Shown in pieces: positions 4,104 through 62,389 of a stretch of 64,000 nt of DNA. Source of the DNA: Takakia lepidozioides (lineage: Eukaryota; Plantae; Bryophyta); the NCBI GenBank assembly GCA_030704615.1, contig CM060731.1, positions 81,158,001 through 81,222,000 on the forward strand, read 5' to 3'. The notes under the pieces were generated by a model. It was not told the DNA's origin. It saw only the letters and a list, made by a program, of their open reading frames with translations, and ran no database searches. The position numbers and the translations under genes are program-made. The number at the start of each line of letters is the position of its first letter. Within the stretch, counting starts at the first letter, position 1.

Positions 4104-4264
4104 CTGCAAGGTTGTTCACTCAAATTCTTATAAGAGAGGAATGAAACGTCGACTGATGCATGAAAAAGTGGGATCAAACAGGTAAGTGTTCTTTGAGCTG
4201 CCAGGTAAGTGTTCATTGATCCTCACGGACCTGCCCTATGTTCCCGATTTTCACAGGGAAAGAA

Positions 4265-6597: not shown

Positions 6598-9533
6598 AGT
6601 GGACTGGCTGGGCTTCTGCAGGGCATGGACAAGAAACATGACGGACATCCTTGGTGCAGGACAACAACGTCGAACATCCATAACGACATTGGCTTGAAAT
6701 TTCGGAGGTCGGTTTGCGTTGGGCATTGCAAGTGCCTGAATATTTCTTGCCCTCGGCTGAGAAACAGCGCTCAGCCAAACGAAAGTGAGTGGGAAGGTGT
6801 GCCCCTGAATCCTTTCACCCCAGGGCTTGCACCTCCCAAGACCAATACTTTTGTGTGCAGGTTCTGCAAACTTTCCCCGTCCTGTGTTTCTGTTTGCCAC
6901 GCTCGTATGTATCAGGTGGCACATCGATGCAAGACAATGACTCGTGCCTGCATTCATATGGGTGCACACGAGCATCCTGTGTCCAAAGGGAGTTGCAGGG
7001 ATAGCGTGGACATCGCTAGAAATCTACTGAAGCAAGAGTTCCACAATGCCCCTTGTGCAACACCTTCTGCTATAGCGCTTGCAGCTAGCAAGGCATTCTT
7101 GGAAAAACACATATTGGGTGAAGGGGATGCGACACAGCCAATGCTGGATGCAGATTCCCTTGAGGCAGTCATGGACCATTTCTCCGTGTTGAGCTCTCCC
7201 AATATTCGAAACCAGGTGAATGCACTCAGAATGGGCAGAGGCACTGCTGGATTCATGGACAACATTATGGACCTCAAACGGAGGAGTCGCTATGAATTCA
7301 TTCAAAACAGTATGTTCCCTGGCCAGGGCTCGTCCAAAGTGTATTTGTTCAAGATGTCCGCTGTGGGCCAAGGCAGTGGTGTGAGCATTGTCCGCCGAAT
7401 GCAACCTGGAGGAGATTTGGCTAAATGTTGGTTAATGTTTGATCACTGCAAACGGGTGAAGGGTTGGACAACCATGGCGTGCCATGTGTATGATCCAGCG
7501 TACCAGCGTGTGCTCTCCATAGCAATTTGTGATATGCAGTCGGAGGACACTGAATCCCAGATGCTCATGTGGAATTCCCTCCTGGCCGTCATGCAGCGCA
7601 ATGGAATACAGAACACAAATTTTGCGGGCTTCATGGCTGATAGTGCACAGGCAAATTTCAATGCAGTGCGGCGCGTGTTTGGTTCGGGGGATCCTAAGGT
7701 CCCAATGGAAAATAGGGAGCGCACATGCCTCTTCCATTGGAGTCAATCTCTGGCACGTCATACAAAGCGCTGCATTCGCCCTGACCTTCAGTTGGAGCAT
7801 AGAAGGCTCTGTCTGAAGTACAAGAATGCCACCTCAATGGGAGAAGCTGAGAGCACTTACCAGGCAATCCGGGCTTGGTGGTTCTCCTCTAGTGCTGCTA
7901 CAGGTATCCACCTGAAGGAGTTGGAGGACTGGTTGGTTTTCTGGCACTTCAGGTACAGACAATGGGGAGCTTTCATGACGACGGTAAGCCTCACAAGTTT
8001 TCCTTAAACACAAATTGCACTTTGCATCGTGCCTGTTCATTTGGGGTTGTTCGATTGTCACTTGCAGAACCTCTACCATTTCTTTTCCTTCCTCACATTT
8101 CCATGCAATGCCTCCTGCAGGACATGTCCTTGGAGGACTTGGCCGACATGCCATCGTGTAATTTGGCAGAGACTGTTCACAACGCCTAGATGCAACAGTC
8201 TACCAAAGCAGGTCGTGACTTGTATGTGGCCACTGCTGATGACATGGTGCGGGCACTTACACAACAAACCAGGTACCGCAATTTTCTGATGGGACGGGGT
8301 GGAGGGAAGGGCCCCGATACGACTTTGTTGATGCTAAGGGCTGCGAGTAGGTCCGGAGACCCGTCAAAGATGGCCAGAGCTCTAAACAGGTGCACTGAAG
8401 GCTCCCCTCTGCAATCCAGGCTCCCCCATTTGGAAGGCGAGGAAAGATTTGGATCATGCAAAAGGAAATTAAACACTCTTCCAGGGTCAGATGGAGATTC
8501 CCATAGGCCAGACAGGGTCAATTTCTCTGTGCCAAAGGTGTCTCCAGTGCAGACTAAGTCCTGTGCCGGCCCCTTCCCAGGTGGGTCCTCCTCCTGTGGA
8601 GCAGGTGCAGAACATGCAAGCATAGCAGCGGAAATCCCATTGGAGGAGGTGGTGGCCATGGTGCAGGAATCTGATTGCATTGATAGTGACTGGCATATAG
8701 AACGCACCCCACCAGGATCTAGAGTGGCTTGCATGGCAATTCGGACCCCCTCATTCAAGAAATGCAAATCAAAAATATGCAAAGGCTCCAGGGGGACTCC
8801 AGCTCCAACATTCACAGGGTTGTTCCGACCTTATCATAGTGGGGAGTCAAAAGAGCACAAGTTTTGGTTCTGCCCAGACGATATGGCACGATGCGTGAAG
8901 GGAACAGTTCGTCCTTCCGTGATAATGAAGCCCCCTCCCCCCGCAATTTGGCCTGTGAAAATTGGGACATCGTTGTCCTCAACCGAGATAAGCATGCTGG
9001 AGGAGGGAGGGTTTTGTCTTGCACGGTCCCGGGTGGTGCCCTTATGCACTGTCGGCACAGATGTGCCACATGCTCCGACAATGCCTCCACCCGGTGCCGA
9101 CTCCCACCCAACAAAAAGAGATGGAAAAACAGTGCGCCGTGTTGCTTCGGGTGCAGATCACGAATGCAAGATGGAATCGGCTAGAATTTTGCAGGCTAGG
9201 GTGACTCGTATCACCGAAGTCCCTTCCCCGGGGTATGGACGGATTTACACAGTGCTGTCAATTGGCTCAGTTCTTCATGCCAAAGAATATCAGGTTACCA
9301 TTGGGAATTTCCCATCGTGCACTTGTCCGGATTTTGTAACGATGCGTGAGGGCGCTCTCGGCATGAGAGGGAAGTGGGTCCCCTGCAAGCATCAATATTA
9401 CATATACCTTGTAATTATGTGTTGCAACGGTAAGAGAGACCAATTCATTCACCAAGCCACACTAGGCTACGGAGAAGTCATCACCCTTCTGCAGCGGGAC
9501 ACCTCGCGTAGAGCTCCGCCAACTTCTCTTTGA
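6598..9533 (+). pseudogene. MULE-type transposase with GCM-like N-terminal zinc domain, DDE core and C-terminal SWIM finger; 5'-truncated, one premature stop
   Basis: GCM-like Cys/His domain (DGHPW..TTTSNI..FRRSVCVGHCKC..C..CRFC..C..H.G.HEHP). Core motifs WLMFDHCKR, FMADSAQANFNAVRRVF, CLFHW and NLAETVH. Intron 7984-8120 (GT..AG, phase 0). In-frame TAG at 8187-8189. SWIM motif YQVTI..PSCTCPDF..PCKH. Confidence 0.85.
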
Positions 9534-9941
9534 ACACATACGAGCCATGCCCGCTTCCCATGCTGGTTTCCACGTTGCCGTGTGAAGACTTTTCATTTTA
9601 TGACAAACATATATATTTCGTTCACGGAACCAGGGCAAATGCACTTGCGATTCATTGTAAGCGTCTCTCTGTGAATTGAAATAAACTGTGTCAATCATTC
9701 TGAGCTCAAATCTGCCATATTTACATATTCCTCTTTTTTGGCACGCATTGCAGACATGGTGCATGGTGGCCTCCTTTGTTTTGTCCACGGTAATAGGCCC
9801 TCTTCCTGCAATCCTCGCCTATAGGACCTGCTTCTCCAGCAGATTCATGCCGCTCACGCTTCAAAGCTTGAACGTGAGCTCAGCTCCCAGGCTCACGGGG
9901 CTGGGCTCACGCCGTAGCTACGCTGCAAATTTTCTTGTGAG

Positions 9942-12900
9942 TTGTATCAAGAAACTGGCGCCTTACGAAAAGGGAGTCAGTTATTGTTCGTGGATGGGAT
10001 AATATCCGGAACTAATGTGTCGTTGTTGGTGGACACAGGAGCGTCGCACTCCTTCATGACACCGGCAACGGCACAAAAGCTGGGACTCCCGACAAGTGAC
10101 GTTGGGGCCTCTATTGAGGTGCGTTCTGCCAAAGGAGAACCACAGTTGGCGACAAGGTTGGCGATTGATGTTCCTCTTCAACTGGGGAGTTGGGAGGGAC
10201 GTGAGAACTTCACCATCTGCGAGATCGATGGAGTGGATCTCATTTTGGGGATGACCTTTTTGAGCAAATCCGGAGCGGTCATAGATGGCCGCAAGAGAGT
10301 AGTCACGCTGCCATGTGGGAATGGTGGCGAGGTATTACGAGTGTCTGAAACGCCCAAATCTGTGGGAGGGCGAATAAACCTTCTATCAGCAAATGAGTGG
10401 GCCGTGGAGGAGGCGCACGAGCCCCAGTTTTTGCTTTACATTAGAGAAGTGAAAGGAGAAGGCGATGGGGAACCGAGCCCAGATTGGATCAAGGGGATTT
10501 TGGAGAAATACCAGGATGTGATGCCGGAGGATTTACCAAGCGGCTTGCCACCGCGAAGAGGAGTTGACCACAAGATTGAGGTGATACCGGGATCGGAACC
10601 GCCTGCCAAGGCGCCCTACCGGTTGAGCCACAGAGAGTTGGTCGAGCTGAAGACTCAGCTCAAGGATCTAATGTCAAAGGGGTACATCCGGCCGAGTAAG
10701 TCACCTTACGGAGCCCCGGTGCTATTCGCAGACAAGAAGGATGGGGCGCTGCGGATGTGTGTCGATTACAGGGCTCTGAATAAGGTGACTATCAAAAACC
10801 GGTACCCTTTGCCAAGGATCGACGACCTCTTCGATCGGTTGGCAGGAGCGAAGTATTTCAGCCGGATCGACTTGCGCTCCGGCTATCACCAAATTCGGGT
10901 GGCGGAAGGAGATGAGGAGAAAACCGCGTGCAGGATAAGGTATGGTTCATATGAGTTCTTGGTGATGCCTTTTGGGCTCACCAATGCACCAGCGACATTT
11001 AGCACGCTGATGAACAGCCTTTTCCAGGAGTGGTTGGATGACTTTGTGATCGTGTACATCGACGACATCTTGGTGTACTCGAAAACAAAGGAGGAGCACC
11101 TGGAGCACCTCAAAAGGGTGTTCCAAAAATTGCGGGAAGGGAAGCTGTATGCCAAAGCTTCAAAGTGCGAATTCGGGGTCACGAAAGTGGAGTTCTTGGG
11201 GCATGTGATTACACAAGATGGGATCAAAATGGATGACAGAAAGGTGAGGGCGATCTTGGACTGGGAGCCTCCGACTTCGGTCCCAGGAGTGCGATCCTTC
11301 CTAGGACTCGCCTCCTATTACCGGAAGTATGTGAGAAATTTCGCCAAGATTGCGGGGCCGCTGTCAGACCTTCTGTGTAAATCTAAAGTCTGGGCATGGA
11401 ACACCTTTTGTGGCCAAGCTTTTGCTGAATTGAAGCAGCGGATGGCGGAAGCTCCAGTCTTGAAAATCCCGGAGTTCGATCGTCCATTTGAGATTCATAT
11501 AGATGCGTCGGACTTTGCGATTGGGGGTGTACTTATGCAAGATGGACGTCCAGTGGCTTACGAAAGTAAGAAACTGAATGAAGTGGAGCGACGGTGGCCG
11601 ACGCACGAAAAAGAGATGAAGGCGGTGGTGCATTGCCTTGAGCTCTGTTGGTTCCAACCCAGTGAAGGTGTTCACGGACAATATCACGGTGAAGTATTTT
11701 GCCACGCAGCCCAAGTTGTCCCCAAAACAACTTACGTGGCAAGATACTTTGGCAGTGTTCGACGTGGATATCCAGTACAAACCGGGACGGGACAATGTGG
11801 TGGCCGATGCTTTAAGTAGAAAGCAGCAGCTCTTGTTGGTGTACAAGGGCGAGACGGCACTCCAAAGGAAGATCCGGAAGGCTTGCCGGAAGGATGAGCT
11901 GGCGAAGTCCGTGATGCAGGACTTGAGGATGGGGGTTAAATCACAGTTCCACTTGCAAAATGGACTGCTCCGGTATAAGCAAAAGCGTCTCTACGTGCCG
12001 AAGGGAGGGATCAGGGATAGCCTCTTGAGAGAATGCCATGATAGCCCGCTTGCGGGCCACGGCGGAGCCAAGCGCACTACGGCACTCTTGAAGAAAGAGT
12101 ATTTCTGGCCCAAACTGAGGGAGGAGGCAGAGGAGTATGTCAAGACATGCACCACATGCCAACAAAACCGGAGCGAGTACAAAAAGCAAGCGGGGCTGTT
12201 ACAACCCTTGCCGATTCCAGAGGGGACTTGGGAAAGCGTCTCGATGGATTTCATGACTGCTATGCCGCTGTCAAAAGGATTCGATGCAATCATGGTGGTG
12301 GTGGATAGGTTCAGTAAAATGGGCCATTTCATCCCCACCAAGGAGACGGCAACGGCGCAGGAGACATGGCGATTTTACTTCGCCCACGTCTTAAAGCATC
12401 ATGGAGTCCCGAAGGATATTGTCTCGGATCGTGATCCAAAGTTTACGAGTAAATTTTGGAGGACACTTTGGAAGAAGATGGGGACGAGGCTGAAGATGAG
12501 CACCGCCTTCCGACCTACGACGGACGGCCAAACGGAAAGAGTGAATTCCGTAGTGAAGCAATTCTTGCGGAATTACGTGTCGGCAGACCAATCAGACTGG
12601 ATGGAACACTTAGACGCGGCAGAGTTCTGTTATAATAACACAGAACACTCCGCAACAGGAGTTTCCCCTTTCGTATTGGTCTATGGAAAAGCACCTCTGG
12701 TGCCGACAAGTTGGGCCGCCCAGGACGTTGAGGAACCGGCAGTAGCGGCGGTACTGGAAGAACGCGAGCGTTTGTTGAAGCTCGCAAAGTACAACATTGC
12801 CAAAGCTAGGAAACGGTATGAAAGGCAGGCGAATCGGAAGCGGAGGGAAGTGAAGTTTGAGGCAGGCACAGAGGTCTGGTTGAACGTCAAGAATTTCCGA

Positions 12901-13311
12901 CTACCTCCGGAAGTGAGTCCGAAGTTCGTACCTCCGTATGCGGGACCCTTTCGCATTCGGAAGGTTATGAATGAGGATGTGTATGAATTGGAGCTGCCAG
13001 CAAACAGCAAGGTGCACCCAGTATTCCATGTCTCCCTTTTGAAGCCTTACTTCAAAGATGAAGCGCGTCCGAATCGGCATCAAGTGTTGCGTCCGCCACC
13101 TATGCTGTTGGATCATGAAAATGAACCTGAGTACGAGGTGGAGGCAATACTTAAGTCAAGGAGGTTCAAGAACCGAGAAACGGAGTATCTCGTCAAATGG
13201 AAGAGCTATCATCATGTGGAGGCATCTTGGGTGCGTGCCTCAAAAATAGGAAACGCATCCGAGGCGGTTGCAGCTTTCGAAGGGCGACCTCAAAAGCGGA
13301 AGAAGCGTTGA
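9942..13311 (+). pseudogene. Gypsy pol polyprotein (aspartic protease, RT, RNase H, integrase, chromodomain), frameshifted at ~11640
   Basis: [10 protein letters not shown] (PR); [10 protein letters not shown] and VYIDDILV (RT); [12 protein letters not shown] (RH); H..H..C..C zinc finger, SMDF, SDRDPKF and DGQTER (INT); YEVEAIL..YLVKWKSY..ASW (chromodomain). The frame changes between ORFs 9942-11819 and 11638-13311. Confidence 0.95.
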
Positions 13312-13928: not shown

Positions 13929-14973
13929 CCAAAAGCTGTGTCACTGTTAACGGACATAAGTCCAACTTCTTTGACATAGACCAAGGTGTAGCTCAAGGAT
14001 GTACTCTCTCCCCTCTGCTCTTCAATGTTTTCATCAATCAACTCCTCGAGGATGTGGAAAGTGAAGGATTTGGGTTAAGGGTGGGTGATACCACCATACC
14101 AGCCCTTATGTTTGCGGATGACTTTGCAGGCATAGGGGAGACTCCAACCAATCTCCATGAGTTGATTGATTGCGCGAAGAGATACTTTGATCTTTGGGGG
14201 CTAGAGGCTAATGTCAGCAAATGTGCAGTGGTAGCATTCAACGACAGAGGAGAATCCTTAAGCTCCCGACGAGATGAATTCAAGGTCAGATGGTGGGGTC
14301 AGCTGCAACATATGCCCAACACCAGATATCCTAAGTTAATCGACTCTATATCTTGGAAACAGGACCGCCCTGTCAAGTCCTGGCAGAAGAGAGTAGAAAA
14401 GATTCTCAAGGACCTGGACCTGGATCCGCAAGTCTTGACCCTGCTGGATAAATCTGACTTAGAGGCTGTAGTGTCAGAACCATGTCTGTTGCCATGAGAT
14501 TGTCTGATGAAAATGAAGTTAGGCAGAGAACTTCCCTGAACTTGTTTCCAGTCAGTGACATAGGGGTGGACATCTTGGATGACCTCAAGGGTCTACCCAC
14601 TCTCGGCACTAGACTGAAATTTAAACTCAGTGCAGGAAGCCTACCTTTGAACAGCAAACAGAAGCAGAGAGGAAAGGGAGAGTGCAATTGTCCGCTGTGT
14701 GGGCAATCTGAAGACAGTATTCATTTTCTGATACACTGTCCGGGGTTCTCTCACCAAAGAGACGCTCTCTTCAATTCTATCAAGGGAATTGTGCCTGTAC
14801 CCCTGTTTACCAACTTTGAAAATCTCGAGGCTGAGCCAAAGGCCCAGGCCCTCCTGAGGCCTAGTTTTTGGGCAAATCACACACAACAGATTGATGCTTG
14901 TGTGAAGGGTTTTCTAGAGGATATCTGGAAAAAGAGCCTCAGGTCTGGTCTTTGGGAGGTAAATATGCTCTGA
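13929..14973 (+). mobile_element. Degenerate non-LTR retrotransposon (LINE): RT C-terminal part and zinc-knuckle C-terminus, with internal deletion
   Basis: KSCVTVNG..GVAQGCTLSPLLFNVFI..LMFADDF..EANVSKC (LINE RT) and CPLCGQSEDSIHFLIHC (C-terminal CCHC). Confidence 0.85.
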
Positions 14974-15556: not shown

Positions 15557-16112
15557 CTTAAGCTCCCGACCAGATTAATTCAAGGTCAAATGGTGGGGTC
15601 AGCTGCAACATATGCCCAACACCAGATATCCTAAGTTAATCGACTCCATATCTTGGAAACAGGACCGCCCTGTCAAACAGGCTAAGTCCTGGCAGAAGAG
15701 AGTAGAAGAGATTCTCAAGGACCTGGACCTGGATCCGCAAGCCTTGACCCTGCTGGATAAATCTGACTTAGAGGCTGTAGTGTCCGAAGCCATGTCTGTT
15801 GCCATGAGATTGTCTGATGAAAATGAAGTTAGGCAGAGAACTTCCTTGAACTTGTTTCCAGTCAGTGACATGGGGGTGGACATCTTGGATGACCTCAAGG
15901 GTCTACCCACTCTCGGCACTAGACTGAAATTTAAACTCAGGGCAGGAAGCCTATCTTTGAACAGCAAACAGAAGCAGAGAGGAAAGGGAGAATGCAATTG
16001 TCCGTTGTGTGGGCAATCTGAAGACAGTATTCATTTTCTGATACACTGTCCGGGGTTCTCTCACCAAAGAGACACTCTCTTCAATTCTATCAAGGGAATT
16101 GTGCCTGTACCC
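15557..16112 (+). repeat. Second near-identical copy of the LINE 3' segment (matches ~14257-14800)
   Basis: Direct repeat beginning TTAAGCTCCCGAC.., with the same translation (MPNTRYPKLIDSISWKQDRPVK..CPLCGQSEDSIHF). Confidence 0.9.
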
Positions 16113-17699
16113 CCTAAACCCATTGCACCAGCCACAAAGCACTCCATGTGGAAAGCACAAAGCACTATGTAAATGGCACTCACTGAATTGCGAACGGTTG
16201 CATTGACTGAGCTGCGGTCGCCGGTGACTTGCTCGCGCCCGCCCCGCGCTCCTTGTTGTGCAGTCACCCACCCCATGAATACACAAACAACCAAAAACAA
16301 AAACAAGAAACAAGAAAGAACAAGAATAGAAGGAGATGGATTGAGAGAGATGATGAAAGAGAGGGAGGCAGAGAGGGAGGCAGAGAGAGAGGGAAGAGGG
16401 GCAGGGAGGGAGAAAGGGAGAGATCGCAGGGAAGAGATCGCAGGGAAGGGGAGTCGCTGCATACCTCTGTTGCGCGCAAGATCGACTGCCCGATTTTTAG
16501 TCGGTGACCGCGATTTACCACCTTGGGGGAGGACGTGCTAAATTTCGGAGGAACCCCTACGTCAGCTTTAACAGCAGCTAGGAGCCTGCTAACTAGCGGG
16601 GGTTGTAACGGGCAAGTGCGGCCGTCACCACGCCGTTAACGGCTGGTACCTAGCTTAGCAAGCCGCTTAGCAGCCAGGTGCGGCCGGGGCTTAGAGTCTC
16701 TATAACGGAGGGCCTCAATCTTACTTTGGTGGGCTCTATAAGCAAGCCGCCCGGGCCCTTTGCGAACGCATTCTAAGTAAGATTGCCTTCACCAATGCCT
16801 TCTAAGATTGCCTTCGCTGATAACCGACCTGCCGCACCCTTGTTAATTACTAATTGTCCCCACAACCAAGTTGTAGCCAAGTGATAATGGACACATACCA
16901 CCTCAGAAGAGGTTGTGGGTTCAACCCACGTCCACCTTCTTGCCGGAAGGTAGTACCCGTGGGGGGTGAAGCGACACCATAACTTAGACCTCCTTGTCGA
17001 GGCGTCATAAGTAAATCAATGAATAATATTTGTTGGCCATAGGAGGTCCTGACCGTTCAAAGACGTCGTATCCGTCCTCTCATGAATTAAGTATTTTTGG
17101 GACACTCTATCCATCCAGGGGGAGAGGCCTCTGGCGGGCCCACTTACCTCTAAGTTACACCGGCTAAGATAGAGGTAACTTAGTGGGCTGCTTGTAGATT
17201 AAAACATGAAGAGAGTGAAGTGTGTCTGCAAAGTGGTAGAGTTCGTTCGTATGATAAGGTGGTGTTTTTCCTTGTTTTGTTTTTTGCCTCCTTCTGTTGG
17301 ATCCCTGCTACCTCTTTCCATTTCACTGAATAGTAGGTTTCAGATCTCGCAACTAGCTTTGTTGTTGGAAGAATCCTACCCCTTAAGCCTGACACGTAAA
17401 TATATACCATAACTTTTTACAAAATATTTAATACAGGACAAATCAAGTTAATCAATTGAAAAGAGCGAGAAAACAATAACCTCGCGGAGGGCCATAAGGC
17501 AATATAATCGTGGGAAACCTCCCATAACGCCTCATTGGAGTCATGGTTCACCAAGAGAACAACGGCAACGAACCAAACTTCAAGAAAACACCATGGACAT
17601 AAATCTAGGACCAAGAACCCACCACAAGTACTGAAGTTGTACAGGACCAACAACACTAGCCAGAGCACGACAAATGCACATCAAGAGAGACCAAAATAA

Positions 17700-33244: not shown

Positions 33245-33775
33245 GGAGCGACACTGTGGAGTGTTTTTTGTGTGGGGGAGTTACTATTTTAATTTTCTTA
33301 TGGTTGGATCCCATCCACACCTGCATGTTTGACTGTGCGCCATGTTAGTTTTTTGTGGGCGCTTGTTTTCATAGGAGGTTGGTCCGGATTTGATCACCGG
33401 TCAATCCTAGAGCGTGCTGTTGGTGGTGAGGCTAGGGTGATGACCAGTCAGACCATCGTTCACTAGAAGAGAAACCGGCTTTTTCCACGGCTCTTTTCAC
33501 ACTTTTTGCCGTGGAATCCGCCCCAGTCCACACCTGCCGTGGGTGTAAGAAACGACTAGTGCTTTCGGACACCCCGTGGACGGCCTGGCTCTCGGGTGGC
33601 CTTGTGGAAAAGTCCACGGGTGGTTGAATCCACGGGTGGCTTTTTTCATGGTGTTCATGGCTTTTTCCACGGGCGACGTGTGCTTTGGCGAACACCGCAA
33701 CGTGGATCCTAGATGTACAAAGGTGTGGACTTGTCCACACCTACGGGAAAACCATGCGACAGCCTGTCACCAGGG

Positions 33776-34114
33776 TGTCAAGTTAAATAAGCACAGTGTG
33801 AAAACAACTAGAATAAAGCTAGTTGGATTTAGATCAAGTGTTAAATCAAGTGTCAAGTTTAGTTTGACACCTGAACCGCCTTATCTTCACGAGAGCGGCA
33901 GTCGCGCAGCTCATCTCTCTCGAGTTGAGCCTGCGCGACCGAGCTCCTGCATCGTTTAGGACTGAGTGTGCTTATGATGGGAGTATAGGTTGTTGTGGGG
34001 TGGAGTCCCCATAGCTTGGGGTGCCCCTGGCTCGACTTCTGTTTTAACGAATGATAGCGATGGATTTCATGTTGTTTCTGGTATGAACAGTGTGTCTCTT
34101 AGCTTGTTCTACCA
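33776..34114 (+). repeat. Repeat A1 (5' terminal repeat, 339 bp)
   Basis: Matches 41332-41687 apart from ~9 substitutions and a 17-bp indel. Confidence 0.95.
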
Positions 34115-34129
34115 CTCGAGAGAGATGAG
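34114..34129 (+). promoter_or_regulatory. Putative self-priming primer-binding site
   Basis: ACTCGAGAGAGATGAG immediately after A1 is the exact reverse complement of CTCATCTCTCTCGAGT (33910-33925) inside A1. There is no TGG-type tRNA PBS. Confidence 0.8.
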
Positions 34130-35589
34130 TTTGCATCTGTGAGTGCAAGATGTGAGCTTAATTAGTTTTTAGCACTTGTGGGTTTTGTGTGAAGATGAGA
34201 GAGAAACACGAGGGTGCAATGGCAAGTTAGGCTTCTGTGTGTTGAAAGCGGTAACACGAAAGTGCATGGGTATTCTCCCTTTATAACGGTCACTGGCTGA
34301 GCGGCAGATTGAGAGCCGAGCATGGTGAAACGATCAGCATTATTGTTGTCTCGCAAGGCTGGGATGCAAGCCTTCATTGTCTTGGTGGTTAGAAGCGGAG
34401 GTGCAGCTGGTTACGCGAGTAGGTGGACCGTGGTCTTCGACTTAAGCTGCAGAGATAAAAATACCATGCTATAGGTAATTCCTGAGTAGACTGATGGTTT
34501 CAGACCTGCACATAGTGAGCAGCCAAGGTGTTGGACTGGTTGATGGGCTCATGTCTACAAGTCATCGTGCCAATGTTATATCGGTACTGATGACAAACGA
34601 TTTGGTGAAGTTGTTGATGGCATATATCATGGTGTGCAATCAGTAAAGGCTGAGTTGAGAAGTTGGCTGGCTATCGTTGGTTTTCTTGGTCAGCGAGCAG
34701 GGACAGGCTGGCATGAAGGCAGATTGTGCCGTCGTTGGCTTTCATGTGGAATAGTTACAGCAAAACCGGTGGGAATATTTGTAGTCAAATAAGATCAACA
34801 AGCAAGTGAGGCTTGGTGATTATGCTTGAGGAATTCGATCTTGGACTTGGACGGGTCTGTAATAATTTTTATAAAAAAACGAGCATGGATGAACTGGCCA
34901 AGTGGCGATGGTGTTGTCCTCGATTAGCTGTGGATTGCAATAGGACAAGGAGAGCAAGAACAGGGTGATGAAGGGGTGCAGACAACGACACCTAGTTCCA
35001 TCAAGGCTTGGTTAAGGTCTCCAAGCCTCTTTGCATCCATCAACTGTGTGGCTAGAGCCCATAAAGCTTGACTATAGCTGATGTTTTGTTAGAAGATATG
35101 GCTCGTAGCCTGCAGAGAACACAAATAACATTGTCATCCACCACTGGGACTGCATGCTAGAAAGCCATGGAGGCGATGGCACCTGCCGTGTAGTTGCCAG
35201 TGCAGAAGAGGTTGAGGGAGAAGCCATGAAGCAGCGTCAGCCACGGTAGTTTGATCATCATCCTTCAACAAGTCGCTACATTCAGTTTCAGGCACTGCAG
35301 CAACTTGGCATCTCCCCCCCCCGGCTCTTGATGCCTACGTATGCATCCAGTAAGCGTCCAAATCTCAGCCTTCGCGAGTTACCCTGCGCGCACACTGAGC
35401 AGCATCCCGTTTCTCGTGTGCAGGCAAGCAGTCTGTGCCAACTTGTGCAACAGTTCGCCCAGTCTGGGTTAACTAGGACAGTTTGCAGTTGAGATGTGGA
35501 TGGAAAAAGGCCCAAGGGAGGGAGGGCCTCAAGGAGGGCCAAAAGGCAAGGCTGTATGTAGGTAGGAGAGATTAGCCAGCTGCCTCTTT

Positions 35590-35860: not shown

Positions 35861-36311
35861 GTGGTAGCCAGGCTTCCTGAACGAGGGAGAAGGACGCCGG
35901 TGCACGTTTGAGGACAAACAATCCCTGCACAACAACTCCCGAAGTTGAAGATTTCTCCAAAGAACGAGCAACAATGGCCATAGTTACCAAAACGGCTGGT
36001 ACAGTTGTAACGGCCATGCTTGGAAGATCGCATCTCGGATTTAACGAAACAGGTTCGGGATGAACTGACTCCCTTGTCATTCCTTCCAGGATTCTTGCTG
36101 TGAGTGAGATCTTCACATTCTATAAGGGAGGCCGGACGGAGTGGATCGTAGCCCAAGATATTTTCGTGCTGGGAGCTCAAAAATGTTATTTATAGTGGAG
36201 AACTTAGAATTCGCAGGGAACCAGGGAACAGGGAACCAAGACGGATTATTGGAAATAGATTTTTCATTTGAATGACATATATTATGTTTAAAGAGCCTAT
36301 TTGGCCATAAC

Positions 36312-37850
36312 TTGTCATACAAAGGGTTGCTGGAGGGCAATGCCCATGCAGAGGATGTGCCACCTCCAGCAGAGCAGGATGACATGCATGGTATGGCGGA
36401 GTTGCCTGCCATGGTTGCTCACACTCCATTGTGGGGTACGAGCAAGGATTTGCAGCAGGCTGCTGATGGACGGGTGCAACAAGCTTGGGTAGAAGCTTTC
36501 GTACCGTCAGGAGAGGAGGAGAGTGCGGTGATTGCACCAGGACCACCCCAGTTGTCGCCATTGGACACCACACCTCTTGTATGGCAGTGCCCGGATGAAG
36601 GCATATGCCTTCTGGACTTGTTTGGCGGGATCAGCACTGGATTGGCTGCAGTGCTGCAGGCAGGTGTACGAGTTCGACGTTACCTGTATGTAGAGAGGGA
36701 TGAGACTGCACGACGCGTCTCACTGCGCCATGTTGCTCCGTTGGTACAGCAGTACCCTATTTTGTTGCCAGTGTCTACAGTTCGTGGATACCAACAAGCC
36801 TTGCCAGCAGACATTTCGTTGTTGGGGGCGCAGGATTTGGAGCAGGTTGGCTCCATTGATCTGGTAGTGGCAGGTTGGCCCTGCCAAGGGCATTCATCAG
36901 CCGGGCATGGCAATGGATTGCGAGACTCGAGGACGGGTCTGTTTTGAGAGATGATGCGGGTTTTGCGCCACTTGCAGCTTCATCAAGCTGTATCTCCAGC
37001 ATACATCTTGGAGAATGTGCCACTGATGGGTGATTCTCGGGCCAGGGTGATGGCCAGTGTGCATCAAGTCCGGTCGTGGCTTGGGTCAGCAGTGTTGCTG
37101 GATGCAGCTGCAGTGGGGTCACGGGCTCATCGTCCACGGCTTTGGTGGACTAACTTGATGCCACCCGCACTGCTCAAGCGTGCATTTGATGGGGTGCAGC
37201 GGCCAGCATACCTCACCAAGGATGGCATTTTGGACACAGGGAGGCAGTCTCAATGTGTGAGACACGATGACCGTTCGCCTTTGGCAGTGGTCAACAGGAT
37301 GGGTCAACCACGAGCAGCATTACCTACACTGCTCAGCTTCCCAGGATCCCATGCTTTTCGGGATGGTGGACCAAGCCTCTTGTGGGATAGCCAGTTGCAA
37401 CAGTTAGTGGAGCCTAATGCCGACGAGCGAGAGCGGGCTATGGGATTTTCCACTGGGACCACGGCGGTGCCTTCTCTTTCTGAGGCATCACGTCGTCAGG
37501 TGTTGGGGCAAGCAATGGATCTCAATTGCTTGACCTGGATTATCAGCTTGGCTATGGCTGAGCAACGTAGAGTGCAAAGTGCACTTCCCTTGACGGTCTC
37601 TCTGCCTACCGAGACGGTACAGGCAGCGAGTGGGGACGAGCCGGTGAGGACCACGGGGTGTAGACATCCATGGCACATGTGGGAGGTGCTCGAGGTTCAG
37701 AGGGAGTTGGCAGCCAAGGCAGCTGTGATGGATGAGGTTGGGGATTCTTCTCGGGATGAGGAGGTTCTCAATGATGAGATGATGGGGCAGGATGAGGCCT
37801 TGTCATTGACTGAACAGGAAGGGAGTACTGCTCAAGAGGTTGCAGCATAG
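36312..37850 (+). pseudogene. DNA (cytosine-5)-methyltransferase (DNMT3-like) domain in the Gypsy pol region, one premature stop
   Basis: Motif I LLDLFGGISTG, II YVERDE, IV DLVVAGWPCQG (catalytic PC), VI ILENVP, VIII AHRPRLWWTN, IX/X ERERAMGF..RRQVLGQAMD. In-frame TGA at 36945-36947. Confidence 0.92.
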
Positions 37851-37859
37851 CAACCATAG

Positions 37860-39493
37860 GACGCGTCCTCTACCTCTAAGCCCACTGGACTTAAGGTTGC
37901 AGTTACGGAGGACAATTGGGAGCCTGACATTGGACCCATTGTCACCGGAGGAGAGAAACGACGTATACGGCGGTTCCTGAGGGCTTACAGGAATTGCTTT
38001 GCCTTCAGTTTGAAGGACTTGGGAGCACTGAAGGGTCAAGAGATCCGTATTGAGTTGGCCACTGACACGCCAATCTTTCGGAGACCCTATAGATACAGTG
38101 ACATGGAGAGGTCTTTGATTCAGATGAGGACTCAAGATCTCTGGGAGACAGGTTTGGTGGAGCTCTCTGGTGGAGAGTATGCTTCAGCCACAGTGATGCC
38201 AGCCAAGAAGGATGTCTATGGCAATTGGACGGAGAGACGTATGTGCGGTGATTACTGGCCTGTAAATCGTCAGACCAAGTCCGATAGGTATGCCATGCCG
38301 ACACCAGAGGAGATCTTTGATGCCATTGGGCATTCCAAGGTCTTTAGCACGTTGGATTTACGATCCGGATATCACCAGTTGCCGATCAAGGAGGCGGATA
38401 AGCAAAAGACGGCATTCTGGGGGATCAATGAGCACGGGAAGGATTGCCTATACCAGTGGCGGTTCTTACCATTTGGGCTTAAAAATGCTCCCACTGAGTT
38501 TCAAAGAATCATGGACAGGATTCTAGCAGGGGTGGAGTTTGCTCGGTGATACATAGATGAATCATCATCTTTAGTGCTACGGTGGAGGAGCATGAGAGAC
38601 ACCTTCAGGGGGTATTTGAGCGCTTGAGGACGCATGGATTGAAGTTACATCCGGGCAAGTGCAAGTTTTTCCACAACCAGATTGAGTATCTGGGTCACAT
38701 GATATATCCTAGAGGATTGGGGGTACAGCAGACTAAGGTAGAGTCCATTGCACAGGTTCCACGCCCCACAGATGTGAACCGAGTTCGAGCTTTCATGGGG
38801 TTAGCAAACTATTACAGACAGTTTGTTAAGGGATTTAGTGCCATTGCAAATGCTCTAACCAAGCTGACCAAGGTGGACCAGGAGTGGCAGTTGGAAGATG
38901 AGCAAGAACAAGCTTTTCAAGAGCTCAAGGCAAGGTTGACCTCGGCGCCCATCTTGAGACGACCTATCAGGGGGCGTCCTTTTCAGCTGCATACAGATTG
39001 GAGCATGCTGGGGCTTGGAGCGGTGCTCACACAGGTGGATGATGAGGGAAGAGAGTTTGTAGTGGCTTATGCTAGCCGCTCGAACAATGCTGCAGAGTCT
39101 AAGTTTAGCTCATATGAGGGAGAATGCTTAGCTGCAGTGTGGGCCATGGCACACTTCAGGTGCTATCTATACGGCAATCTCTTCAGCCTTGTCACGGATC
39201 ACCAACCACTCAAGTGGTTGATGGAGTTAGACAAGCTTACAGGGAAGCTTGCATGGTGGGCACTCATCCTTGAAGACTATGACTTTCAGGTGGTGCATCG
39301 ACCGGGTTTGGTCAATCGCAATGCAGATGGGTTGAGTCGCAATCCATGCACGAGCCAGCAGGATGATACTGGAGCTCGGTGGCATGGTGAGACGGACGAG
39401 GAGATGGTGCCCGGATGGCATGCATCTGCATTTCTGTGTATCTTGGCAGCGGAAGGTGAGGTTGGACCTGCAACAGGGATGACTGTAGATTAA
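37860..39493 (+). pseudogene. Gypsy reverse transcriptase and RNase H (stops and frameshifts)
   Basis: [27 protein letters not shown], degenerate YIDD, LHTDWSMLGLGAVL, YEGECLAAVW, TDHQPL, NADGLSR. Confidence 0.95.
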
Positions 39494-40984
39494 GTGTCTG
39501 AGGACCCTGAGGCCAGCAATGAGCAAGGTGGCGCCAAAGATATACATGAGGATTCAGTTGTGTTGGACTACCTCCGCACTGGAGACACTGCAGCCACTGT
39601 GACTGCCAAGGAGAGGGATCGGATCCTACAACGAGCCAAGAGGTTCAAGTGGGAGGGGACACACCTGCTCCGAATGTGGGAGGATGGTCGAGTGAGGATT
39701 GTGTCTCACCCAACACAGCGGGCACGGTTAGTGCGGCATGCCCATGAGGAGTTGGGGCATTTTGGGGTGCGACGCACTCATAGTCTACTGCAGGGGCAGT
39801 ATTGGTGGCGTGGTATGCACACAGAGGTGCAACAATTTGTGGTTAGGTGCATGGTGTGTGACAGGGTGCGTGCTTCATTCAACGCCCCTACTCCACAATT
39901 GCACCCTCTTCCGATCATGGGATTGGGCTACAGGTGGAGTCTTGACTTCGCAGGGCCATTGCCACTGACCATGCGTCACAACAAGTATGTGTTGGTGATG
40001 GTGGAGCACTTCTCCAAGTGGATTGAGTTGGTTCCATTGCCTGATAAGGCTAGTGAGGGAGCTGCGGATGCATTCTTGGATTGTGTGCTTAGCCGATTCG
40101 GTGCTCCAGCTGAGGTATTCACGGACCAATGGAGAGAGTTCTTGGAGGAGTTTCAGGCTTTGTGTGACAAGGCCTTGATAGACCACCGCACCACTTCTAG
40201 GGATCATCCTGAGGCTGATGGCTTGGCAGAGAGAGTTGTTCAGACAGTAAAGAGGGGTTTGCGCAAGTATGGCTTGCAAAATGGACACCTAGGAGATTGG
40301 GACCTTCAGTTACCCTGGTTAGCCATGGGCTACAGGTTCAGCAAGCAAGCATCACTTGCCTCCTTCTCACCATATTTTCTTCTCTTTGGCCGAGAGCCGG
40401 ATTTGTCTGCATCCATTCGCAGAGAAGCTGCTGCAGTTCTTAACCTTGACGATCCGGACGTGTGGGCACGTGCATGTGAGCAGCGTGCGGAGTTGTTCAA
40501 GAAAGTCATGCCCATGGCTTTCGAAAACCTTGTCATCGCACAACACCGTGATACGTTGAGGTATGCTACCATACGTGGTGGGGGCTATCGTCCTGGGGTT
40601 CGGAGATTCAACCCTGGTGACTATGTTTACCTGCAGCAAACTGCTCTTACGACCTTGGATGTGACTGCAGGACGTGTTATTTTGAGGGTTCGAGAGGTCT
40701 TGCCCTCAGGCGTCTTGGTCTTGGAGGGTCGGGATGGCATAACTTGGAAGGACCATGTGCGTAATTGTGCGCCATGTCACCTTCCGAATGTCGATGGCAG
40801 GATTGACCCAAACCTGGCAGTGGTATCTGCAGGTTTGAGATGCATGTTGTGTGGGTCTGCTAGAGGGGCAGCCACCATGCTGGTGTGTGATCGATGCTCT
40901 AGAGGTTGGCATATGGGCTGCTTGACTCCACCTCTTGAGATGGTTCCGGATGGGGATTGGTTATGTCCACATTGCATTGGATAG
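39494..40984 (+). CDS. Integrase with C-terminal PHD finger
   Basis: HEELGHFG..CMVC zinc finger; SLDFAGP, TDQ and ADGLAER core; C4HC3 PHD CMLC..LVCDRCSRGWHMGCLTPPL..VPDGDWLCPHC. Confidence 0.93.
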   Translation: MSEDPEASNEQGGAKDIHEDSVVLDYLRTGDTAATVTAKERDRILQRAKRFKWEGTHLLRMWEDGRVRIVSHPTQRARLVRHAHEELGHFGVRRTHSLLQGQYWWRGMHTEVQQFVVRCMVCDRVRASFNAPTPQLHPLPIMGLGYRWSLDFAGPLPLTMRHNKYVLVMVEHFSKWIELVPLPDKASEGAADAFLDCVLSRFGAPAEVFTDQWREFLEEFQALCDKALIDHRTTSRDHPEADGLAERVVQTVKRGLRKYGLQNGHLGDWDLQLPWLAMGYRFSKQASLASFSPYFLLFGREPDLSASIRREAAAVLNLDDPDVWARACEQRAELFKKVMPMAFENLVIAQHRDTLRYATIRGGGYRPGVRRFNPGDYVYLQQTALTTLDVTAGRVILRVREVLPSGVLVLEGRDGITWKDHVRNCAPCHLPNVDGRIDPNLAVVSAGLRCMLCGSARGAATMLVCDRCSRGWHMGCLTPPLEMVPDGDWLCPHCIG

Positions 40985-41243
40985 TGGGAGTGGATAGAAC
41001 CATGGAGGGCTAACAAGAAACGCAAGGCCAAGCTACTAGGGGACCTTGAACACACGAGGTCTTGACTCAAGTTCATAGATTGCAAGACGGCGACTAACGA
41101 TGGGGCTACTCTTGTACCCGGCCTCTTGGTCTATAGAGTTTGAGTACAACAGGGACAGTGATAGAGGACTTAGTACGGCTGTGGCTATTACATCTTGTAA
41201 CTATCTGGAGGTAAAGGGACCTATCCACCAGCTAGGGGGGCGA

Positions 41244-41773
41244 TTGGGGCAGACTACTTTATTGTGCATATATGTGTGGTGTGGTTTGGACAGCGATGTA
41301 GTTATGTAGCGATACGTATGCGCACGACAGCTGTCAAGTTAAATAAGCACAGTGTGAAAACAACTAGAATAAAGCTAGTTATTTGTATTTAACACTTGGA
41401 TTTAGGTCAAGTGTTAAATCAGGAGTCAAGTTTAGTTTGACACCTAAACCGCCTTATCTTCACGAGAGCGGCAGTCGCGCAGCTCATCTCTCTCGAGTTG
41501 AGCTTGCGCGACCGAGCTCCTGCATCGTTTAGGACTGAGTGTGCTTATGATGGGAGTATAGGTTGTTGTGGGGTGGAGTCCCCATAGCTTGGGGTGCCCC
41601 TGGCTCGACTTCTGTTTTAACGAGTGATAGCGATGGATTTCATGTTGTTTCTGGTGTGAACAGTGTCTCTCTTAGCTTGTTCTATCATTGTGGCAGAATA
41701 CTTTATTGTGCATATATGTGTGGTGTGGTTTGGACAGCGATGTAGTTATGTAGCGATACGTATGCGCACGACA
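41244..41773 (+). repeat. 3' terminal repeat block B1-gc-A2-B2
   Basis: B1 (41244-41329) and B2 (41688-41773) are 86 bp with 2 mismatches. A2 lies between them. The B1/A2 junction is the palindrome GACAGCTGTC (41326-41335). Confidence 0.95.
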
Positions 41774-42710
41774 AGGGTTTGACGACATCTGGGCAACGGT
41801 GTGTGCAACACGTGTATTTTTGTGAGGATGACACGTGTATGGACACGAAGAGGCGTTGTGCACGTATGTGGAGCGGACATCTGGCGTGGCATGTGGGTGT
41901 GAAAAAAGCCATTCGGTGTGAGACCATCCACTGGCTGTTTTCACAGCTTCAGCAAGTTTGGAGGCCACGTGTTCTTTGGCAAACACCGCCACGTGGATCC
42001 TAAACGTACAAAGGGTGTGGACTTGTCCACACCTACAGAAAAATGATGCGACACCCTGTCACCTGGGCTTGACGACATGTGGGCAACGATATGGGCAACA
42101 CGTATATTTTGGAGAGGACAGCACGTGGCGTAATCTGCATGGAGTGGGTGTAGTATTTTACTGCCTATACTGTAGGTCATTCCACATAGCTGTGGAGCAT
42201 ACCATAATGGGTGTGAAATATCTACTGCTGATGTTGTAGGTCATTCCACAAAAATGTGGAGGATGCCACAGGCAAGCTGCGGTTGATTTCACATATTTGT
42301 GACGTCATGGTGTGCACAATTAATACACAGGCATCATGATCATATCACAAATCGTGATACTGTCCACACTGTCAGTTTCACAGTCCATGTGAAATATGAC
42401 TCATATACATAAACACAATTCCAAAGCACCACGACAACAACCTGCTCATGACATGTACAATTGACTAAGCATGGCCAGAACAACAGAAAGAATGACCAGA
42501 TGCAAGGGTGCTTCAAAGTTGGGTACGCCCTTCATTGCCCAAATACAGTTTAGTCTGAACATGCAAGTATTGCAGAGTCTGCACTACTGATCACAACCCC
42601 ACAATGTACCCAAATCCTACATTGATGCGCAAAATCACGAAGAAAAGGTGAAATCGATATGAAGTGGCGTTCAGTCAAAATTGCCTTCAAACTGAGGATC
42701 CCCCACAACC

Positions 42711-48768: not shown

Positions 48769-51524
48769 ATGAGAGAGGTCGGAACTAGAAACACCCGGCG
48801 CCACACTACGGTGCCCGACACTGACGCAAGACTTTGGCAAATCTAGGAACGACGTGCAACTAGACTGGGTCTTTCAAAGATAATGTGTCCCTGCAACGAC
48901 TGCCATGGGGGTCGACTCCAATTCGTGGAAACTGCCAAATTGCATTTGCTTGCCAACGACTGGGATCCACTGTTGGGTTATCCCATGGTGAGTGACGTGC
49001 ATCTCTCGCCTCACTTCTCGCAGACATAACTTAGGATGAAGCCCTTAGAATGCTAATGTTGAACGGTCCTCTACTGTACATGTACGGTGGACTACTGTAT
49101 GGAAACTAGCACGGTCAAATAGGAGATTCCATGTTTTATGCAACAAGTTACATTTTGGACAAGACTATACTCTTATACTTTGGAGGTGAACATGCAGGTG
49201 GAGAGTGTCGACTCCGAAGACGAAGACTTTGTGGAAGAACGTAGCCCCCCTAAGGATGATGTTCCGAGACAGATTAGCCCTGTTCCTGTTCGTGGTGGAG
49301 AGAATCTAGACCCCGACGTCGACATCATTCGCATGTTGCAGGAAACGTTTGCAGTTGCAGATAATGTAAAGCACCATTAATGAGGATGAAGGGCTTGGAG
49401 AAGACGAGCGCCATCATGATGGACAAAGTCATGGGGATGGGGATGACGGTGCTGCTTTCCAATTTCAGCATCAAGCAACCACACCTCTGTATGTTGGCTG
49501 CCCCACCAGCTGCTTGAGTGCGACGTTGCTCTTGCTCAATGTTAGTGCTACTCATGGTGTCACAAATGCAACGATGGATGAGCTTCTGAAACTTTTGCAC
49601 GGACATCTATTGCCTAAAGGGAACTTTTTGCCCAAATCTCATTATGAAGCGAAGAAACATATAACAAAAGTTGGGCTTGATTACGATAGCATCCATGCTT
49701 GTGAGAAGGGATGTGTGCTATACAGGGGAGATCTGCAGGATGCACCATCTTGCCCTAAATGTGGGGCGCCTCGGTACATCCCTGGCATGAAGACGTTGGT
49801 TCCACAAAAGGTCTTGCGGCATTTCCCCTTGATTCCCCGACTGTCGCGCATGTACAAGTGCAAGGAGATATCTAAGCTTATGGTGTGGCACACGGAGAAC
49901 CAAAGTCAAGATGGGAAGATGAGACACCCGCCTGACAGCCTTGCATGGAAATACATTGACGATACATGGCCTGCTTTTGCAGCTGAACCTCGCAACTTGC
50001 GACTAGGTCTGGCATGGGATGGTATCAATCCCTTTGGTGATAAATCAACAAAATGGTCTACGTGGCCTGTCTTGCTCATGAACTACAACCTTCCTCCTTG
50101 GCTGAGCACAAAGCCTTTTTTTTATGATGTTGACACTCTTAATTCTAGGGCCGACATCCGTGAAGAAGACCAATGCGGATGTGTTCTTGCAACCTCTGGT
50201 GGATGAGCTGACCGTGTTGTGGGAAGGTGTTAGGGCTAATGATGCATCTCGCAATGAAGGATCAAGGACCTTTGTCATGAGAGCCATTCTGATGTGGTCA
50301 GTACATGACTATCCTGCATATGCCATGCTAGCAGGGTGTGCAGTTGGGGGCTACAAGGCTTGTCCCGGGTGTGCGGGCCCAATCTTGATGCCAGGCACTC
50401 CAGTGCACTGAGCAAAATGGTAAACCAGGGGCACAAAAATTTCTTACCAGCAGGCCATCCATATAGACGCAATCGCAACCACTTCAATGGAGCCTCCGAT
50501 CACAGACCCCCCCCCCCCCCCCCCCCCCCAAGTATCCACTGTGGATCAGCTCCAAAATGCGGAGGAAAACGAGAGGTTCATGGAAACATTCGGCAGACGT
50601 CGCCGGAATGTGTGCCTGCCAAATCCCATGGCATGAGCGAAGGTCGATCCTTTGGAACTGCCATATTGGAAGGTGGGCATGTCTTCATTGTTTGTTTGTC
50701 GGCCGGCTGATTTCATAGTTGCATGGATACAATTGTAAGGATCATCACACACGACTTAGATTTCAGCCTAATGCAAATTGCATGAAGCAAGTTTGGAGTC
50801 GCCTATGTATGGCACATGTAGCAGCAATATGGTTGTTTCCATGAAAATGTCTGGCTTTTGTCTCTCAGGATATTGTCTGCAGCATGCAAGACTGGTTTCT
50901 TCCTTTTCCATTATTAAGATGTCATCTCTTGGCTTTACCATCAAAGTATACCATATTGATGGTGGTTCCATGATTGCAGGATTTGTGATACGGTATACCC
51001 TTGATGTTATGCACTGTGAAAAAAAATTTCTGAAAACATATTGCGCACCATATTGGGGGAAAAGGACACAGTAAAGAGCAAGAAGGACATGGAGAATGAG
51101 GGCATATGACCTCACTTATGGTTAAAACCCCACCCCGGAGATGGCAGGAAGTTGGGAAGCCGCAGAGGGCTCCTTACGTGTTGAATCGACAGGAAAACTA
51201 CTACCTTCTATGCAACTTTGGGTGCTCTAAAGACACCGACAGGGTATGGTGCTTCATTTAAGAAGCATATTGCTAAGAACAAGCTTTCACACATGAAGAG
51301 TCATGACTACCATCTACTGATGCAACAAGTTCTACCTTTGTGCATTCGAGGTTTGCTGGGCAAAGGTCCAAGGCTCGCAATCATGAAGCTATCTCGTGTA
51401 TTTCGCGCATTGTGCATGAAAACAGTGGATCCCGAGGAACTACCAGCCCTGAAGGAGGATGTGGTTTGTAACGCTTTGGTGTTGGAGAAAGAGTTTCCCC
51501 CTCATTCTTCGATCTCATGGCCCA
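48769..51524 (+). pseudogene. CACTA Tnp2/TnpD transposase, frameshifted and truncated by an LTR insertion
   Basis: MCPCNDC, IHACEKGCVLY..CPKC, LRHFPLIPRL, MRHPPDS.AW, RLGLAWDGINPF..STWPV..YNLPPW, DVFLQPLVDEL..LW, WSVHDYPA, LDVMHCEK, MKSHDYH.LMQ, EFPP.FFDLM. Confidence 0.93.
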
Positions 51525-62135: not shown

Positions 62136-62389
62136 AAACCGTCTTGTACTGGTGGCTGGAACTGGCACGCGTCGTGTTCCAGTCGACTTCATCCGTGCGA
62201 ACGTGTCAGGGGTCACAATCTCTTCATCACCCATACGGCAGAAAGTGGTGGACGGTGGCAACGCTTCGGGAGACGTGGCTGCTTACACATCTGCTCGTGC
62301 ATAGTGGTTGCATGTTCCACCGCTTCGCTCTCTCGCTCCTTGCCCTTCTGCAGTGACATTCTCCTGCGTTTCCTCTCCTTATGCGGCAT

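Follow-up and report, generated by a model that had tools for sequence, protein, structure and literature searches.

The window, as we call the whole stretch of 64,000 nucleotides of Takakia lepidozioides DNA analysed here (contig CM060731.1), holds between positions 33776 and 41773 a Gypsy element with the order repeat A1, putative primer-binding site (PBS), leader, methyltransferase, stop, reverse transcriptase (RT), RNase H, HHCC, DDE integrase, PHD finger, purine tract, repeat B1, a GC dinucleotide, repeat A2 and repeat B2 (Table 1). Its reading frames are broken and the copy is dead. The RNase H domain is present, the integrase matches rve and H2C2 with the D-D-E residues in place, and no match to a chromodomain, to SH3_Tf2-1 or to a tyrosine recombinase was found in the pol region. 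The intact relatives L082 and L035 carry gag and protease.

Table 1. Features of the element and of its insertion site (positions in the window)
Feature	Position	Strand	Remarks
Left target-site duplication AGGG	33772-33775	+	matches 41774-41777
Repeat A1, left end, starts TGTCA	33776-34113	+	17-bp deletion after 33824 relative to A2
Weak TATA-like word TATCTT	33882-33887	+	31 nt before A33913; canonical TATA at the same distance in relatives
Hairpin across predicted start	33901-33939	+	same geometry in 5/5 folded A2 segments
Self-primer sequence	33910-33925	+	predicted transcript start A33913, predicted cut after 33925, 13-nt primer
U5 motif GGCTCGACT	34029-34037	+	pairs with 33923-33931 across predicted cut (second helix)
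Putative primer-binding site	34114-34129	+	complement of 33910-33925
Broken 3′ part of ORF1, C5 DNA methyltransferase	36276-37850	+	ends TAG 37848-37850
Broken pol	37851-40984	+	RT, RNase H, HHCC, DDE integrase core, PHD finger
Polypurine-tract-like AGGGGGGCG	41234-41242	+	directly before B1
Repeat B1, ends CGACA	41243-41329	+	
B1/A2 joint GACA-GC-TGTC	41326-41335	+	element ends head to tail, 2-nt spacer, palindrome
Repeat A2	41332-41686	+	12-bp hairpin 41387-41419; second primer-sequence copy 41483-41498
Repeat B2, right end, ends CGACA	41687-41773	+	
Right target-site duplication AGGG	41774-41777	+	
Insertion-free paralogue of target repeat	41963-42127	+	matches 33672-33775 + 41775-41837 end to end

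Repeat A1 had been taken in the earlier note for a complete 5′ repeat, a deduction drawn from the 16-nucleotide complement that adjoins it. The repeat does possess both its ends, but it is internally shortened by the 17-bp deletion and, measured against the B-GC-A LTR defined by the priming sites, comprises no more than the A portion. Nor does its completeness follow from the complement; it rests instead on the 4-bp target duplication, on an empty site with a single AGGG in contigs of runs X1 and X5, on boundaries shared family-wide and on contig depth, which rises in a step of about 50-fold at the start of A1 and drops after B2 (the step is used as a boundary, not as a copy number). The 4-bp duplication and the empty site led us to abandon an initial view of B plus A as an ordinary LTR that had suffered a deletion. 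Contigs without the 17-bp deletion of A1 number 22 in run X1 and four in run X5. The insertion host (33500-33775 and 41775-42270) is a repeated element with duplicated subunits, present insertion-free in X1 and X5 as well. Contig depth in the leader that follows the PBS is lower by a factor of some hundred than in the 3′ UTR, in B and in most of A (34130-34500 against 41100-41240), and A has many different 3′ ends; the probable cause is abundant non-autonomous or sister subfamilies with the same primer region.

Between ORF1, which encodes gag, protease and methyltransferase, and pol lies an in-frame stop followed by CA(A/G), whose place is constant in all families examined: 37848-37853 in the window, 3489-3494 in L082, 5083-5088 in L035, and also in L004, L006, L009, L043, L061 and L062. 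This conserved stop is likely read through; the methyltransferase would then be produced in the same amount as Gag.

Elsewhere in the window, a second Gypsy (6571-13311) has protease, RT, RNase H and integrase and matches both the SH3_Tf2-1 and the chromodomain models; neither an LTR pair nor a self-priming signal was found for it. A 115-bp tandem array of palindromic units (4189-6597) lies on its 5′ side. A 557-bp direct repeat, 96% identical (14257-14803 and 15557-16113), is situated within LINE-like sequence, a CACTA-type transposase fragment (Transposase_21) occupies 49370-50206, and an array of units of about 61 bp with perfect palindromes of 24-30 nt extends over 60450-62140.

The element is kin of KnitGypsy-Dnmt3 of Klebsormidium nitens and is not a member of the Tf1/chromovirus group. 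As described in PMC5890265 (de Mendoza et al. 2018), KnitGypsy-Dnmt3 likewise combines a Gypsy RT-RNase H-integrase with a C5 methyltransferase upstream, and the legend of Figure 4 there likens its repeats to those of a DIRS retrotransposon; the element studied here has A-coding-B-A-B repeats too. The window integrase is 55% identical to K. nitens P0029, the pol of L082 is 47% identical over 925 aa to K. nitens P0164, and the protein relatives named belong to Calypogeia, Marchantia, Riccia, Sphagnum, Klebsormidium and Haematococcus. The RT of L082 is only 37% identical to that of the chromodomain element of the window, against 58-67% within the clade. Two differences from KnitGypsy-Dnmt3 are that here the conserved stop parts the methyltransferase ORF1 from pol, and that the relatives reach liverworts and mosses. 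The text of PMC5890265 and its three supplementary text files, figures aside, make no mention of PBS, priming, circular or target-site. In one relative, L088 (3874-8463), the methyltransferase is placed between RNase H and integrase and not before RT, and P0157, P0165 and P0171 look like L088 by their Pfam lists. Contigs L082 to L088 are eukaryote-type retrotransposon contigs binned in prokaryotic genome assemblies, likely as contamination.

The 16 nt that directly follow A1 (ACTCGAGAGAGATGAG) are, as had been claimed, the exact reverse complement of a segment within A1 (CTCATCTCTCTCGAGT); the sequence confirms 100% complementarity over the 16 nt, with 188 nt between the arms, and the first base of the right arm is the last base common to A1 and A2. 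Once two tandem palindromic arrays (4.2-6.6 kb and 60.4-62.1 kb) are set aside, this is the sole exact inverted repeat of at least 16 nt with a spacer of 20-500 nt in the window. When the whole window was resampled 100 times (first order), two of the resamples contained such a repeat anywhere, and a complement of at least 10 nt lying no more than 3 nt from the A end arose in 30 of 20000 resamples. The absence of a TGG-type tRNA PBS also holds, the first TGG 3′ of A1 being at 34179, 65 nt off. ARAGORN found no tRNA gene in the window or in 39 loci, and an Rfam match to snoZ278 over 33970-34075, below the gathering score (E 0.015), was taken as chance. Position 34130 is a C in most family contigs of run X1 (depth 6102/8084, 19 contigs), so that there the pairing reaches 33908 and the length of the arm cannot set the start site.

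Relatives were collected by a metagenome scan, from which 80 of 310 confirmed loci were kept, a genome scan (9 loci) and a viral scan (1 locus, distant). Readable junctions between the A end and the PBS were provided by family F1 (14 distinct loci, L004 being its best copy) and by L035, L082 and L067. In each of them the PBS pairs with a partner inside its own A repeat: over 17/17 positions in L004, 16/16 in L035, 13/13 in L082 and 15/16 in the decayed L067, whose register was set by hand. At the 13 positions next to the cut in the window, L004, L082 and L035, all 52 cells are Watson-Crick pairs while the pair type changes in 9 of the 13 columns, the unchanging ones being the three bases at the cut and column 6 only; L035 and L082 are close kin in this comparison (94% RT identity). 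Covariation across families, which the earlier note had put forward as a check, is thus found, with the pairing kept and the letters changed. Within F1 the target is retained by 12 of the 14 A1 loci, where between 8 and 12 of the first 12 positions form Watson-Crick pairs (mean 10.4), and deleted in the other two; the pairing of L004 extends up to about 22 nt, past the predicted start. A search for self-primers in the two distant elements L084 and L087 and in L088 and L085 gave none above chance, a 12-nt candidate in L084 included. The circular contig L082 and the B-GT-A-PBS arrangement of L035 were not accepted as real circles and were treated as collapsed assemblies of A1 and A2; both contigs were used solely for their A-end/PBS junction.

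Conservation of the pairing with different sequences in four other A-end junctions argues against chance and fits no single tRNA. An origin by chance, or by a local inverted duplication in one dead copy, has nothing else in its favour than the death and decay of the copy; it is refuted by the null counts and by the same feature in other families, and we give it practically no credence. Priming at 34114-34129 by a host RNA (a half-tRNA, a tRNA fragment or a small RNA), with the match in A1 incidental or a relic, would have a parallel in the half-tRNA priming of plant Copia lineages (PMC6317226). It is nevertheless very improbable, because the PBS starts with TGG in none of the five junction types and four unrelated PBS sequences each follow their own A-internal partner, as a fixed host RNA would not.

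Regarding the transcript start, a pyrimidine-A 12-14 nt before the cut, with TAT(A/C/G) 28-31 nt upstream, was found in 7/7 repeats by a permissive motif search that left out L067. Promoter spacing makes A33913 the best-placed start and in this indirect manner supports the claim of a start near 33910. The pairing that runs beyond this position in L004 and in run X1 was counted against A33913, as was the poor TATA-like word of the window, and the true start could be a few bases upstream. The motif GCTYGAC in U5, with which the bases across the predicted cut would form the second helix, is also present in the relatives, and the primer helix together with the second helix forms the minimum-energy fold in the window (z −4.7) and in L035; L004 and L082 contain the motif, but there the second helix is not part of the minimum-energy fold. 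Both hairpins that had been reported are present and fold better than shuffles. The one at the start site has the arms GTCGCGCAG (33901-33909) and CTGCGCGAC (33931-33939) and a z of −4.5; the one in A2 (arms 41387-41398 and 41408-41419, z −5.4) has no left arm in A1 owing to the 17-bp deletion, and is located upstream of the predicted start, outside the priming structure. In all five folded A2 segments the primer sequence lies inside a hairpin whose 5′ arm is upstream of the start. Consequently, formation of the start-site hairpin would be restricted to single-stranded DNA and to the A2 copy in the RNA, where it likely conceals the 3′ primer-sequence copy.

Taking into account that: (i) the complement occupies the position of a PBS; (ii) its partner inside A covaries with it across families, and (iii) a start site can be placed near the beginning of that partner, we propose a self-priming model for the element. 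In the model, transcription would begin at A33913, the first 13 nt of the RNA would pair with 34114-34126, and the second helix would mark the cut after 33925. Minus-strand synthesis would copy A1 backwards, jump to A2 and continue through GC into B1, and the plus strand would begin at the purine tract before B1, giving the linear product B-GC-A-PBS-coding-PPT-B-GC-A. From the sequences it can be predicted, and we consider it likely, that the element and the relatives with this pairing self-prime from their own RNA; that the 16-mer at the PBS position, paired inside A1, lets the element prime from its RNA 5′ end as Tf1 does, taken as a whole explanation, is also held with good confidence.

A further U5 helix beside the cut is a feature of Tf1/sushi elements; here a helix at this place is predicted in the minimum-energy fold of two of four sequences, those of the window and L035. 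In Tf1, Tf2, Tj1 and other Tf1/sushi elements and in plant Tcn1, the PBS abuts the 5′ repeat and complements a segment inside it, as in our element (PMC7175516, PMC4600332, PMC6317226). The Tf1 primer consists of the first 11 bases of its RNA, released by an RNase H cut (PMC7175516, PMC4600332), whereas the primer here would be 12-14 nt. The element differs from the Tf1/sushi group in having a PHD finger and not a chromodomain, in lacking SH3_Tf2-1, and in that its inserted ends are not those defined by PBS and PPT: in place of two full LTRs ending at PBS and PPT, copies have the form A-coding-B-A-B or A-coding-B. The description Tf1-like applies, then, to the way of working and not to membership, which the missing chromodomain and SH3_Tf2-1 and the permuted ends contradict. 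Self-priming has been predicted in plants for Tcn1 and TAR (PMC6317226), although for SM-Tcn1 it was reported as not found (PMC2864245). The Copia lineage TAR (Houba, Osr-1), a plant LTR lineage outside Tf1/sushi with a sequence-based prediction of self-priming (PMC6317226), differs from our element in its Copia domain order and ordinary LTRs, and its case implies that the trait arose more than once.

The PBS base that follows the exact pairing, which faces the nucleotide preceding the predicted start, is often a C in place of the base predicted by the repeat: position 13 of the F1 PBS is C in 5, T in 4 and A in 3 of 12 loci, and position 14 of the L082 PBS is C against G in L035. The recurrent C may be a copied RNA cap, on the strength of two events only. 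The MMLV RT reportedly copies the cap.

The purine tract adjoins B1, not A2, throughout. Given this position and that of the PBS behind A, ordinary reverse transcription yields a cDNA with B-GC-A at either end, whereas the inserted copies are A-coding-B-GC-A-B or A-coding-B with TGTCA...CGACA ends. Their target duplication is of 4 bp, not 5, exact in 8 of 11 two-ended copies and matching at 3/4 positions in two and at 2/4 in one. All 22 intact B/A joints read CA-nn-TG, the spacer being GC in 11, AC in 6, GT in 3 and AT in 2; every spacer, including those of two GC-rich distant elements, can be derived from GC by deamination. At a further locus, L053/L054, the B/A joint was deleted and then interrupted; the counts of joints and forms leave it out, as they do duplicate contigs of one locus and L025, which ends at B. 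The A-coding-B form accounts for 21 of 33 distinct F1 right ends. It could be the product of two cuts in linear or circular cDNA, or of later recombination between B1 and B2; two age proxies gave no difference between the two inserted forms (p 0.12 and 0.47). Decay was too advanced for a possible solo A-B in L021, or for a B-like match in reverse orientation in L065, to be read.

To account for the inserted ends, the ends of the cDNA would be joined, the A end to the B start, and the DDE integrase would then cut the CA^GCTG palindrome; the copy in front of the PBS would be cut in every case, and the second copy in many. A staggered cut at CA^GCTG produces the processed ends of a DDE integrase by established chemistry, and we infer that this chemistry applies to the integrase of the element. 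On balance we lean slightly towards such cleavage at the internal palindrome, with the cDNA ends joined beforehand. For foamy virus, the integrase has been reported to cleave circles at the palindrome that their joined ends form, which yields processed CA ends (PMC1180852). CA ends are likewise found here; however, the foamy-virus palindrome is made by the joining of cDNA ends, while the present one is templated within the LTR and the joined cDNA ends carry no conserved attachment motif. In Tf1, the cDNA frequently still carries tails from the PBS and the purine tract, together with untemplated bases (PMC11042837), a hint at the advantage that attachment sites placed internally would bring. 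None of the 14 A1 copies with an intact start has B in front (p about 0.013-0.024; L052 and L012/L013, with the A1 start missing, are left out). As a symmetric circle predicts A-B-A-coding-B too, either the cut before the PBS is favoured or the route is templated.

The second of these options retains self-priming and has B2 added by RNA-templated strand transfers and not by end joining of free cDNA. The transcript would run into B2 and the A2/B2 joint would serve as the bridge, as proposed for split-repeat tyrosine-recombinase elements. A directed route of this kind suits the A2/B2 joints, precise in 10 of 12 F1 loci, and the lack of any B-A-coding copy among those seen; it is less easily reconciled with the other two joints, which contain extra bases ending like the purine tract, and with the lack of fixed differences between B1 and B2. 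Across 11 elements no column separates the two repeats and a subfamily marker at column 14 agrees within 11/11, as would be expected if B2 is recopied from B1; the B1-B2 transversion distance, 1.7 within elements and 1.8-3.1 between them, was uninformative. Templated addition of B2 is a possibility to be taken seriously, though we put it below an even chance. Far less probable is that the complement acts at the DNA stage, as a bridge aligning cDNA ends or strands for circle formation in the manner of DIRS-1, which has an internal complementary region, with priming achieved otherwise. DIRS, Ngaro and PAT elements are not known to make an integrase-type target duplication. The split repeats, DIRS/Ngaro-like by the Figure 4 legend of PMC5890265, and the pairing that runs upstream of the predicted start are what such a bridge has in its favour. 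Yet the partner is not the end of the element, being 135-195 nt inside A and about 30 nt after the TATA-like word; the complement has the orientation and position of a PBS, mirrored by the purine tract at B1; and no other priming site was seen. Ngaro, PAT and VIPER do have A1-coding-B1-A2-B2 split direct repeats as here (PMC6681497), but our element has a DDE integrase, a 4-bp target duplication, a PBS and a PPT, and no tyrosine recombinase, and its intact relatives have a protease.

Self-priming itself is known elsewhere, and alone it would extend the list of independent origins, now Tf1/sushi, Tcn1 and TAR, by a further one in a Gypsy clade outside the chromoviruses. Its larger value is that the start of reverse transcription becomes fixed so that, with the purine tract, the cDNA ends cannot equal the inserted ends. 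No paper on priming or integration in the KnitGypsy-Dnmt3 clade was found in a search that had subscription papers, Repbase entries and figures outside its reach; in the literature searched the name KnitGypsy occurs in PMC5890265 only, and a 2026 preprint (10.64898/2026.05.21.726589) touches on streptophyte Gypsy-DNMT3 elements in passing. Programs that look for LTRs and PBSs expect two full LTRs and a tRNA match and hence miss or misread the clade.

We give about even chances to a scheme in which a green-lineage Gypsy clade, extending from algae to mosses and liverworts, has uncoupled the ends of reverse transcription from those of integration. Its members would self-prime, the ragged B-GC-A cDNA ends would be joined and the integrase would open the templated CA-GC-TG palindrome; the circle would be obligate, only A-coding-B-A-B copies would breed on, self-priming, which in Tf1 leaves poor ends through retained primers, would be the reason why the attachment sites moved inside, and the recurrent C of the PBS would be a trace left by copying of the RNA cap. 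An unexplained remark in a figure legend, on DIRS-like repeats in a Gypsy element, would thereby be turned into a testable replication scheme, and the clade would offer a natural case for the long-debated role of joined-LTR circles as precursors of integration.
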